DNA of 64,000 nt from an uncultured Chlamydiae bacterium (GTDB lineage Bacteria > Chlamydiota > Chlamydiia > Chlamydiales > SM23-39): positions 256,539-320,538 of the forward strand of contig CAWHDP010000002.1 of assembly GCA_963828125.1 (NCBI GenBank), in the 5' to 3' direction. The position numbers were made by a program, and so were the translations under genes. Positions 59,269 to 60,730 of this stretch are shown piece after piece; within the stretch, counting starts at the first letter, position 1, and each line of letters begins with the position of its first letter. A model generated the notes under the pieces. It was not told where the DNA came from, ran no database searches, and worked only from the letters and a program-made list of their open reading frames with translations.

Positions 59269-59697
59269 ATGCAATGTTATCGCATCCCTCGCCCCCGGAT
59301 TGTCTATGAAGTGCTGAATACTGAAGTGATCATTATCGATTTTAATACAGGAAATTACTATGCGCTGGTTCACGTTGCTAAACAGATTTGGCAGATGATT
59401 GAACAGTCGTTTTTCTTCGATCAAATTGTGAGGCTTTTAGCCGATCACTTCCATCTCGAGCTGGATAAAGTGCGGCTCGACGTCGCCCCCTTTATCGAAG
59501 AGCTGCTCAAAGAGGGGTTGATTGAAGTATCCGAGTCTGAGAACTCTTGCGGCTCTGCGGATTCGATCTTTGCCGCCGCCGTCGGCTGGGAATACGATGT
59601 GCCGAAGCTCCAAACATATACAGACGTACAAAACCTGCTCCTTCTCGATCCGATCCATGAAGTGACAGAGGGCGGCTGGCCGGAGAAGCTGGACTAA
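59269..59697 (+). CDS. PqqD-family protein (RiPP recognition element-like)
   Basis: IVYEVLNTEVIIIDFNTGNYYALVHVAKQIWQMIEQ...IVRLLADHFHLELDKVRLDVAPFIEELLKEGLIE follows the PqqD pattern (beta-strands, then winged-helix, then D..F...L...GL). Confidence 0.75.
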   Translation: MQCYRIPRPRIVYEVLNTEVIIIDFNTGNYYALVHVAKQIWQMIEQSFFFDQIVRLLADHFHLELDKVRLDVAPFIEELLKEGLIEVSESENSCGSADSIFAAAVGWEYDVPKLQTYTDVQNLLLLDPIHEVTEGGWPEKLD

Positions 59698-59704
59698 AAA
59701 CGGT

Positions 59705-60730
59705 ATGTCCGAAGCCCTTCAATTTTTTGATTCGGCCCGTCGGAATTTTTCCGGCGCCGCTGCCGCTGCCGGGATCACTTGCCGCTTTTACCGGCTTGCA
59801 GAGTTGACCGTCTGTTTAAAGTTTGCAGGGGACGCGCTTGTCGATACTCTGACAGCTGCCTTGAGCCATTTGGAGACGCCCCCTTCAACTCCGCCCGATC
59901 TGACGATCTGTATTTGGGATAGCGCTTCTACTCATACAGAGCCGCTCTTATTTCCTTGGACAAGTTATGCATATGGACTCCGCGGCGAGGTGGATAAATA
60001 TAATGATATCCGCATCTACACAGTTGTCGATATCCACACGAAAGCATTGAATCTTTTTGATCGGGCCCGGAATTTGGCCTTTTTTTGGATCAAAGACGGG
60101 GGGGAACTCCCTTGGTGGATCGGAGGATCGCCCTTCCAACTCCTGTTACACTGGCGGCTCAGACTGCGGGGGTGTCAATTAACGCACGCCGCTGCGGTCG
60201 GTTTTCCTGAGGGAGGGGTTCTCCTGGCCGGCAAAAGCGGCGCTGGCAAGTCGACGACGACCCTCTCCTGCATGAAGGCGGGGATGCAGTATGTGAGCGA
60301 AGATTATTGTTGTCTCACCGATCTTCCCGACATCAGAGCCTATAGCGTTTACAATTCGGCGAAGGTGAGCGAAAAGACGCTCCGTTGGTTTCCGGACCTT
60401 TCCCAATATGTCGAAAATCGGAATCGGGCGAGCGGGGACAAGGCATTCTTGTTCCATCACAAATTTCAACCGGAAAAGATTTTGTCCAACTGTCCCTTGA
60501 AGGCGGTGATCGCCTTAAAAGTCGAAGAGGGGGGAGAGAGCTGGCTCGAGCCGGTCGATCCACAAATCGGCGTGAGCGCCCTTGCCGTGAGTACCCTTTG
60601 GCAATTGACCCATACTGGATTTGTCGCATTCAACCATTTAAAAAGGATTGGGGAGACTCTGCCTTGCTATCTGCTCCATTTAGGGAGCGATTTGACCCAG
60701 GCGCCGCGGATGATTGAGGAATTGCTATGA
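59705..60730 (+). CDS. HPr kinase/phosphorylase C-terminal-domain-like P-loop protein (HprK-related kinase)
   Basis: HAAAVGFPEGGVLLAGKSGAGKSTTTLSCMKAGMQYVSEDYCCL matches the HprK_C core (hG.....GvLl.G.SG.GKS...L...G..lvsDD). Confidence 0.7.
   Translation: MSEALQFFDSARRNFSGAAAAAGITCRFYRLAELTVCLKFAGDALVDTLTAALSHLETPPSTPPDLTICIWDSASTHTEPLLFPWTSYAYGLRGEVDKYNDIRIYTVVDIHTKALNLFDRARNLAFFWIKDGGELPWWIGGSPFQLLLHWRLRLRGCQLTHAAAVGFPEGGVLLAGKSGAGKSTTTLSCMKAGMQYVSEDYCCLTDLPDIRAYSVYNSAKVSEKTLRWFPDLSQYVENRNRASGDKAFLFHHKFQPEKILSNCPLKAVIALKVEEGGESWLEPVDPQIGVSALAVSTLWQLTHTGFVAFNHLKRIGETLPCYLLHLGSDLTQAPRMIEELL

Follow-up and report, generated by a model that had tools for sequence, protein, structure and literature searches.

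A PqqD-like protein with a leader-like C-terminal tail, encoded beside an HprK-like kinase and glycosyltransferases in a Chlamydiales genome: a putative peptide precursor fused to its recognition element

The locus considered here raises the question of what a PqqD-like protein and an HprK-like kinase act upon when their genes stand side by side at the head of a series of glycosyltransferase (GT) genes. The window, i.e., the whole stretch of DNA that was analyzed, comprises 64,000 nucleotides (nt) of an uncultured Chlamydiae bacterium (GenBank assembly GCA_963828125.1, contig CAWHDP010000002.1, positions 256,539 to 320,538 of the forward strand), and the gene pair is located at positions 59269 to 60730. 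A sequence-only reading of this region had left two options, namely, a peptide that is phosphorylated and/or glycosylated, as in the pathways of peptides that are ribosomally synthesized and then modified after translation (RiPPs), or a non-RiPP role of the RiPP recognition element (RRE) fold in glycan assembly. The first option is the one that we favor, albeit in a different form, since the peptide appears to be fused to the RRE. With a probability of about one-half, the locus represents a phosphorylation-glycosylation module of the type found with linear polyphosphorylated peptides (LPPs) and the lasso peptide paeninodin, the precursor gene of which would have become an in-frame extension of the RRE gene at its 3' end.

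Both open reading frames (ORFs) were confirmed on the forward strand, i.e., the RRE gene at 59269 to 59697 (142 amino acids [aa]) and the kinase gene at 59705 to 60730 (341 aa); in this Chlamydiales metagenome-assembled genome (MAG), NCBI labels them "PqqD family protein" and "hypothetical protein," respectively. The intergenic gap is 7 nt, the stop codon of the kinase gene overlaps the start of the first of three GT4 genes (60727), and the successive GT4 genes overlap each other too. The earlier description of a pair coupled to three GT4 genes is therefore accurate in the spacing, in the stop/start overlap, and in the reality of all three GT4 genes. The two proteins are subdivided as follows.

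59269 to 59697, forward strand: RRE-tail protein of 142 aa, in which an RRE domain of the lasso-B1/LppB type is followed by a variable linker and then by a C-terminal tail that is conserved (Pfam PF05402, 48 bits; mean predicted local distance difference test [pLDDT] score of the AlphaFold2 [AF2] model, 85.5)
59269 to 59532, forward strand: RRE domain proper, aa 1 to 88, β1-β2-β3-β4-α1-α2-α3-β5 (AF2 pLDDT >90)
59533 to 59592, forward strand: variable linker, aa 89 to 108, acidic and Ser/Thr-rich (from the alignment; its length differs among homologues)
59593 to 59610, forward strand: leader-like, putatively RRE-binding motif Y109-D-V-P112-K-L114, i.e., [F/Y/W]xxPxL (85 unique tails; AF2 pLDDT ~86)
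59635 to 59682, forward strand: distal invariant motif L123-LLLDPIHEVTEGGWP138 (85 unique tails; AF2 pLDDT <50 at aa 127 to 136)
59705 to 60730, forward strand: two-domain P-loop kinase of 341 aa with the fold of HprK/P and phosphoenolpyruvate carboxykinase (PEPCK) (profile versus PDB, AF2, Foldseek)
60230 to 60259, forward strand: P-loop GKSGAGKSTT of the kinase, aa 176 to 185

The PqqD-like identity of the first protein was borne out by PF05402, the cutoff of which (23.4 bits) is clearly exceeded. The best NCBIfam match is lasso_PqqD_Bac, with 48 bits under its cutoff of 80 bits, and the family profile matches TbiB1 (E = 3e-15), PbaB1 (9x90; E = 1e-10), TfuB1, and LppB (9x8z; E = 3e-5) in the PDB, whereas true PqqD structures reach only E values of 0.06 to 0.4. 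Membership in the PqqD family of pyrroloquinoline quinone (PQQ) biosynthesis thus failed, with no PQQ genes in the locus and an RRE that is closer to lasso B1. The AF2 model, with strands β1 to β4, helices α1 to α3, and strand β5, superposes on TbiB1 in Foldseek with a TMt of 0.90. RREs of the lasso-B1/LppB type recognize the leader motif [Y/W]xxPx[L/V/I], "knobs" of which enter two hydrophobic pockets (PMC13381572), and the pocket residues of PbaB1, mapped onto the RRE family by HMMER alignment, are conserved throughout (Y30, 100%; Y31/F; L33; I40/V; L57; Y61/F; D71; F75, 87%; L79, 98%; L84, 90%). Judged by these alignments, the domain is an RRE of the lasso-B1/LppB type that has retained its leader-binding pockets.

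With its 142 aa, the protein exceeds a discrete RRE by about 50 aa, and the C-terminal tail is its most conserved part. The consensus of 85 unique tails, [F/Y/W]xxPxLxKY[T/S]DMQ[D/E]LLLLDPIH[E/D]VxxxGWP, recurs with fixed spacing; P(+3), D(+10), and DPIH (+18 to +21) are present in 85/85 and the Leu of the leader motif in 75/85. Counted from Y109, the +18 position is D127. In the LPP system, the kinase LppK polyphosphorylates the core residue Ser3, which is located at +18 from the leader Tyr in YxxPxVLxHQxIxFETxxS, and the crystal structure of LppB with LppA shows that the RRE sheet is extended by a strand of leader residues M-12 to Q-7, which correspond to +4 to +9 when counted from the Tyr (PMC13381572). 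AF2 models residues 101 to 120 of the window protein with a pLDDT of ~86, a β-strand at 114 to 117 (+5 to +8), and a helix at 120 to 126, and the predicted strand falls within the pairing segment of LppA; the stretch DPIHEVTEGG (127 to 136) has a pLDDT of <50. From this model we infer that the leader-like motif would dock in cis on the RRE cleft. The linker in front of the motif contains 16% Ser plus Thr and 21% Asp plus Glu. As a modified core it is a weak candidate, given an enrichment of Ser/Thr of 16% versus 9% and several linkers without either residue, and T118 is not supported as an invariant phosphoacceptor (T/S in 84% of the tails).

A locus from a low-GC MAG (L021, positions 3598 to 8524) appears to encode in split form what is fused in the RRE-tail protein of the window. 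It contains an LPP-like cluster whose kinase belongs to the family considered here, with E = 1e-106 to the profile, and is fused to an ATP-binding cassette (ABC) exporter. Its RRE of 95 aa lacks a tail and is immediately followed by a 35-aa ORF, MENNNTQQQEENTKEVYVKPAIEKHDQIQNIGMGS, with the C terminus YVKPAIEKHDQIQNIGMGS; next in order are genes for a fusion of GT2 and RRE, for a protein resembling S24/signal peptidases, for the ABC-kinase fusion, and for a GT4. The family hidden Markov model (HMM) aligns the 35-aa ORF to tail positions 90 to 120 (E = 0.0085), which makes it the third of 231 ORFs after two RREs. By position, the residues of the ORF and of the window tail pair as Y/Y, P/P, I/L, H/Y, I/V, QN/QN, and I/L, and the C-terminal Ser of the ORF is found at +18, i.e., at the position of D127. 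This is the type of arrangement to be expected if an RRE gene had been fused with an adjacent precursor gene; because the match is short, L021 provides good but not conclusive evidence for such an origin.

The second protein had been taken for an HprK-like kinase, an assignment that stands on the family profile and fails on the library models. PF07475 (22 bits; cutoff, 33.3) and TIGR00679 (20 bits; cutoff, 240) remained below their cutoffs, and membership in the HprK-related kinases A and B failed as well (TIGR04352, 21 bits; TIGR04355, 46 bits; cutoff, 200 each). A profile of 24 homologues, in turn, matches the HprK/P of Lactobacillus casei (1jb1) with E = 2e-5. In this alignment, H161 corresponds to the catalytic His140, G176 to T185 correspond to the HprK P-loop with K182 on its Lys, and E199-D200 correspond to Asp178-Asp179. 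Nine residues, H55, H161, G176, G181, K182, S183, D200, K220, and K246, are invariant among 75 homologues, and by alignment the catalytic residues of the kinase are intact. In the N-terminal domain, which carries the motif LT[IV]C[IL]WDS, H55 is invariant and T67, W71, and D72 are nearly so; the conserved residues of this domain are candidates for substrate recognition. The AF2 model (pLDDT, 95.8; predicted template modeling score [pTM], 0.92) has its best full-length Foldseek matches in ATP- and GTP-dependent PEPCK (TMq, ~0.58; E, ~1e-10). These matches accord with the known HprK/P-PEPCK relationship and suggest that an active-site cleft is located between the N-terminal and P-loop domains.

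Homologues of the kinase are numerous, i.e., 966 in a word-indexed search and, in an exhaustive profile search, 2,737 clusters at 50% identity with E ≤ 1e-30 and 18,168 with E ≤ 1e-3. A first set of 13 loci, retrieved with the kinase, stems from Chlamydiales/Simkaniaceae, Gammaproteobacteria, Synechococcus, Ardenticatenaceae, and other sources. In twelve of them, a tail-bearing PqqD protein (138 to 169 aa) is encoded beside the kinase or not far from it and the GT2/GT4 genes number one to five; NTP_transf_5 is present wherever the sequence is long enough, with flanks that are unrelated between loci. A metagenome scan seeded with the PqqD protein yielded at least 540 tail-bearing relatives, from which 80 loci were taken and annotated with HMMs built here. 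The kinase follows the RRE gene immediately 3' in 35/44 of these tail-retrieved loci with enough sequence, which speaks against a chance pairing, and the 13 with at least 8 kb downstream encode GTs (13/13), NTP_transf_5 (10/13), and an MsbA-like ABC exporter (6/13). The earlier statement that no ABC exporter is visible holds for the locus in this genome, also past the window end. The usual order is RRE, kinase, GTs, (ABC), and NTP_transf_5, and the operon of this genome reads RRE-tail, kinase, three GT4, GT2, and NTP_transf_5. Fusions join the same parts, e.g., PqqD-kinase (P0043 and P0044), GT2-NTP_transf_5 (L019), GT2-kinase, kinase-GT2, kinase-GT2-GT2, epimerase-kinase, and ABC exporter-kinase; one locus, L006, was found among the matches listed in a contig scan with the kinase profile. 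With its distribution over Chlamydiales, Gammaproteobacteria, Cyanobacteria, Chloroflexota, and many metagenomes, the RRE-kinase-GT-NTP_transf_5 cassette is, on gene content and order, conserved and horizontally mobile.

This conservation bears on the most conventional explanation, according to which the locus would be an ordinary exopolysaccharide or lipopolysaccharide (LPS) GT cluster, with PqqD-like and HprK-like genes that are incidental or regulatory and have no common substrate. The GT-rich neighborhood, including the GT61 and RXYLT1-like genes upstream, and the position of some related loci inside LPS gene clusters would fit such a view. It is already disfavored by the tight translational coupling, with the 7-nt gap and the stop/start overlaps, by a gene order that is kept across phyla, and by the multiple domain fusions that unite the parts, and we regard it as highly improbable.

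Some of the retrieved loci have features of their own. Two complete RRE-tail/kinase/GT cassettes stand in tandem on one metagenomic contig (L058, 161 to 17471). An NAD-dependent epimerase is joined to the kinase in L103 (7495 to 17854), and the cassette is followed there by genes for a radical S-adenosylmethionine (SAM) enzyme, a PP-binding carrier protein, a GT4, a sulfotransferase with tetratricopeptide repeats, and a nonribosomal peptide synthetase condensation domain, which suggests a larger hybrid cluster. L013 (9422 to 11458) has two RREs, the tail-bearing one of which heads a GT4-GT2-NTP_transf_5 operon; in the second, which is fused to the kinase, the distal motif (FKLIDSNNNYHHSENEFW) is degenerate, and a Transglut_core protein is encoded 2.5 kb away. 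The cassette of L011 (1 to 21080) is situated within a lipid A/LPS-core locus (lpxB, msbA, waaA, and lpxK), which also has Kdo-kinase-like genes, genes for two heptosyltransferases of family GT9, and one for an ArnT-like PMT_2 protein. Directly 5' of this cassette is a gene of the N-acetylglucosamine 2-epimerase family, which recurs beside the cassette in L015, L040, and L066.

The flanks were examined for a separately encoded precursor. The gap 5' of the RRE gene measures 100 to 160 bp in most loci and 131 bp here, where a scan for promoters, terminators, and RNA folds gave nothing above chance. An all-against-all comparison across ten loci, which took in every ORF from 25 aa upward, revealed no conserved small ORF besides the RRE; the others were shadows of coding genes, and a separate conserved precursor ORF in the flanks was rejected for this reason. 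The tail motif is present in exactly one copy per locus, and no second copy was found in any locus or in the 64-kb window. These results speak against a classical RiPP pathway in trans, in which the RRE would bind a precursor encoded elsewhere and the tail would only regulate the cleft by autoinhibition or competition, as do the missing leader peptidase, the missing exporter of this locus, and the spread of the cassette across phyla with unrelated flanks. Its merits are the intact RRE pockets, the free precursors of LPP and lasso systems, and the two RREs of L013, one of which is kinase fused; on balance, it seems quite unlikely.

A guide to the possible chemistry is provided by pseudomycoidin, whose HprK-type kinase PsmK phosphorylates a Ser residue, while PsmN, an "uncharacterised NTP transferase" that requires D134/D136, is needed to add one or two hexoses; the hexosylated phospho-pseudomycoidin resists phosphatase (PMC6993621). 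In the favored reading, the leader-like motif would dock in cis in the RRE cleft as a β-strand and would present the LLLLDPIH...GWP segment to the kinase, with D127 at +18, in the place of the LPP phospho-Ser. The kinase would then phosphorylate the tail, at D127 or at a nearby hydroxyl such as that of Y117 or T118, and, by analogy with PsmN, the NTP_transf_5 protein and the GT2/GT4 enzymes might attach and then extend a sugar chain. Since a leader peptidase is missing, the product would remain part of the 15-kDa protein if the invariant Asp-Pro bond is not cut.

Several points weigh against this reading, which is drawn for a cassette characterized here from sequence and predicted structures. 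The docking in cis is based on pLDDT and secondary structure only, and the match between the L021 peptide and the tail is short (10 bits). No Ser or Thr of the tail is invariant, with T/S at +9 in 71/85 (84%) and Y at +8 in 76/85 (89%), and the residue at +18 is Asp (Asn in one homologue); phosphorylation of Asp is not known for HprK-type kinases. The distal motif is invariant, unlike the typically hypervariable cores of RiPPs, so a docking or subunit role fits it too, and it is degenerate in a natural PqqD-kinase fusion, in which tethering would make a docking motif redundant. Finally, an exporter and a leader peptidase were not found in this locus, which leaves the fate of any product unexplained.

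A tail that is a pseudo-leader and docking arm rather than a substrate would account equally well for the invariant distal motif and for the degeneration of this motif in the PqqD-kinase fusion. The RRE fold would then have been recruited into glycan assembly with a nonpeptide acceptor: YxxPxL would fill and stabilize the RRE cleft, LLLLDPIH...GWP would clamp the RRE to the kinase and possibly complete its active site, and the complex would act on its acceptor, for instance a sugar or a lipid- or glycan-linked intermediate, by way of a sugar activation that runs from the kinase to the nucleotidyltransferase and on to the GTs. The second option of the sequence-only reading survives in this form, and the tail without an invariant Ser or Thr speaks for it, as do recurrent fusions of the kinase to GT2s and one to an NAD-dependent epimerase, cassettes in LPS-core or polysaccharide loci (L011 with waaA, lpxK, msbA, and GT9; L102 with Wzy_C), and the resemblance of the full-length kinase model to PEPCK, a small-molecule kinase. 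Moreover, LppB is insoluble in the absence of its leader (PMC13381572), and a fused leader would therefore stabilize an RRE. Glycan assembly of this kind sits poorly with a conserved core that lacks a priming polyprenyl-phosphate transferase, a flippase, and a polymerase, with enzyme families whose action on peptides has been demonstrated for pseudomycoidin and LPP, with a tail that is homologous to the free precursor in L021, and with RRE pockets that stay conserved. We consider it possible but rather doubtful, and continue to prefer a tail that is itself the substrate.

A more far-reaching version of the precursor fusion would regard the cassette as a hitherto unrecognized, self-contained "cis-precursor" RiPP-like class, in which leader and invariant core are both part of the recognition domain, the invariant Asp-Pro (+18/+19) takes the place of a Ser as the reactive center, and the product is a conserved glycoconjugate. 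In one scheme, the carboxylate of the Asp might be activated by the HprK-fold kinase; in another, the Asp-Pro bond might break via an anhydride, much as GDPH/DPH sequences process themselves. By both schemes, the protein or peptide could become linked to a glycan made by GT2, GT4, and NTP_transf_5. This proposal is unlikely as it stands. If it were true, a conserved glycoconjugate would exist in thousands of bacterial lineages, including the obligately intracellular Chlamydiales.

The remaining genes of the operon extend beyond the window and could be followed in other data, since four other public assemblies carry the same locus, one of which (GCA_049688295.1, here L001) reaches 8 kb beyond the window end.

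60727 to 61828, forward strand: GT4-1, broken into 60727 to 61416 and 61436 to 61828 by an extra A at 61366 (Pfam GT4 N- and C-terminal halves, one per piece)
61825 to 62928, forward strand: GT4-2, 367 aa, intact (Glycos_transf_1, 1.7e-39; Glyco_transf_4, 1e-17)
62906 to 64000, forward strand: GT4-3, with an extra A at 63006, continuing past the window end (L001 counterpart at 11082 to 12191)
L001 12179 to 12865, outside the window, after GT4-3: soluble GT2 of 228 aa
L001 12862 to 13998, outside the window: NTP_transf_5 (PF14907), 378 aa, 117 bits
L001 14096 to 14530, ~2 kb past the window end: orphan ORF of 144 aa, directly after NTP_transf_5 and followed by dnaG

The three GT4 paralogues share 51 to 55% identity. 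The sole differences between the window and L001 are two inserted A's, at 61366 within an A-run and at 63006 (GAGTG to GAAGTG), which frameshift GT4-1 and GT4-3; three other assemblies of the locus lack these bases, and GT4-1 is an intact gene of 366 aa in L001, L002, and L003. Because both genes are intact in three other assemblies, the frameshifts are most likely homopolymer sequencing errors and not signs of pseudogenization. The NTP_transf_5 protein retains its DxD motif as GDVDIL, and by this motif it keeps its catalytic residues; its profile versus the PDB gave no meaningful match. The orphan has no match in Pfam, NCBIfam, or PADLOC and no counterpart in other cassettes, and PADLOC defense-system models had no matches (0) to eight cassette proteins.

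The succession of GT4, GT2, NTP_transf_5, orphan, and dnaG past position 64000 rules out a canonical lasso or PQQ cluster there, and the absence of a cyclase, protease, radical SAM enzyme, and PQQ genes with the pair, as first noticed in the window, also holds beyond the window end in L001. No Asn-synthetase-like cyclase, transglutaminase-like protease, peptide radical SAM enzyme, or PQQ gene was found among the Pfam-annotated genes within 8 kb upstream and 10 kb downstream, nor was the same lasso or PQQ machinery found among 20 further window ORFs scanned. The upstream 52 kb contain housekeeping genes (PFK, MiaB-like, Dus, IspH, Opp, RecN, and RNase HIII).

Three neighbors of the operon deserve mention. 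On the same strand and 131 bp 5' of the RRE gene ends an ORF of 1720 aa (53975 to 59137, forward strand) with a PPDK_N-type ATP-binding domain (aa 251 to 584) and a C terminus of about nine HEAT/adaptin-like repeats ("GFEAAIVAAQQGI..."); it is absent from every other cassette examined and was rejected as a cassette member. A pair of eukaryote-like glycosyltransferases, which is unusual in bacteria and consistent with a host-associated Chlamydiales genome, is encoded in divergent orientation at 51836 to 53640 (reverse strand), one being a GT61 (PF04577) and the other having an RXYLT1 C-terminal domain just over the cutoff and a weak exostosin match. Farther away, at 38760 to 40526 (forward strand), is a 588-aa fusion of a Ser/Thr protein kinase with an FGE-sulfatase domain (formylglycine-generating enzyme-like).

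Genome mining for RiPPs uses RREs as a class-independent handle and assumes a separate precursor nearby, so that a large family with a precursor-like sequence fused to the RRE would escape or mislead precursor-centered tools. The cassette, reduced to one 15-kDa protein and its enzymes, could serve as a simple, self-contained model for the chemistry of HprK-like kinases and NTP_transf_5. The invariant DPIH...GWP points to a conserved product rather than a variable antibiotic, and the occurrence in Chlamydiales beside eukaryote-like glycosyltransferases raises a possible role at the host interface. No paper on this cassette or on an RRE with a fused leader was found, which, with incomplete coverage of the literature, is absence of evidence only.

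Among known systems, the LPP clusters of Bacillota are the closest relatives. Their core genes encode a precursor, the RRE LppB, the kinase LppK, a signal peptidase I (SpI)-like peptidase, an MsbA-like exporter, and the NTP transferase LppN, and they sit among glycosyltransferases (Popov et al., Nat Commun 2026, PMC13381572); the supplement of that work labels the NTP transferase as Pfam NTP_transf_5, a family whose members accompany HprK-like kinases in LPP clusters and in lasso clusters of the paeninodin type (PMC6993621; PMC13381572). The cassette shares with them a discrete lasso-B1-related PqqD-type RRE, the HprK-like kinase, NTP_transf_5, the glycosyltransferase surroundings, the MsbA-like ABC exporter in about half of the related loci, the leader motif YxxPx[V/L]xx[H/Y]xx[I/V/M] in the same spacing, and a key residue at +18 from the aromatic anchor. 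It differs in that there is no separate precursor gene, the leader-like sequence being fused to the C terminus of the RRE, and no SpI-like leader peptidase; an invariant Asp replaces the Ser at +18, the "core" is itself invariant (LLLLDPIHxVxxxGWP), GT2/GT4 genes are obligate in the operon, and the distribution covers Gram-negative phyla, including Chlamydiales. Three of the six LPP core features are thus present (RRE, kinase, and NTP_transf_5), whereas a free precursor, an SpI peptidase, and an exporter are absent from the locus. Signal peptidase I of the archaeal type (LppS) was not found in this locus, nor did an HMM made from the S24-like peptidase of L021, a single-sequence model of limited sensitivity, detect a peptidase in the 80 tail-bearing loci.

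The paeninodin and pseudomycoidin lasso systems resemble the cassette in their B1 proteins, i.e., those to which the RRE is most similar (TbiB1 and PbaB1), and in the pairing of an HprK-type kinase with an NTP transferase. Apart from the B1-type RRE, the defining lasso components are missing: the macrolactam synthetase (C), the B2 protease, and a free precursor do not occur here, and the Asn-synthetase-like C and the transglutaminase-like B2 are absent from 10 related cassettes too. The HPr-rel-A/GAK (TIGR04352 and TIGR04355) and SynChlorMet (ScmC/ScmD) systems likewise combine an HprK-like P-loop protein with a PqqD-family protein, and homologues show "faint" PF27840 (ScmC) matches; the ScmD score, however, is 21.7 bits versus a cutoff of 100, and neither the radical SAM/SPASM partners (ScmE/ScmF) of SynChlorMet nor the ATP-grasp and CofD-like partners of the GAK cassette are found here. 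With HprK/P and PEPCK, the kinase has in common the P-loop and the catalytic His/Asp, which align with HprK/P, and a two-domain fold that superposes on PEPCK, but it lacks the HPr-kinase N-terminal domain and a phosphotransferase system context and scores 20 bits versus 240 with TIGR00679.

Borosins are autocatalytic precursors in which the core peptide is fused to the modifying enzyme, and their chemistry is N-methylation. They share with the proposed arrangement a substrate peptide that is covalently joined to a protein of its own pathway, and with such a fusion a separate precursor gene is not needed; here, in contrast, the fusion partner is the RRE recognition domain, and the chemistry would be phosphorylation plus glycosylation. 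Taken together, the cassette is a variant not previously described in the literature found, which stands outside the LPP/paeninodin family as defined and yet would work like the tailoring module of that family.

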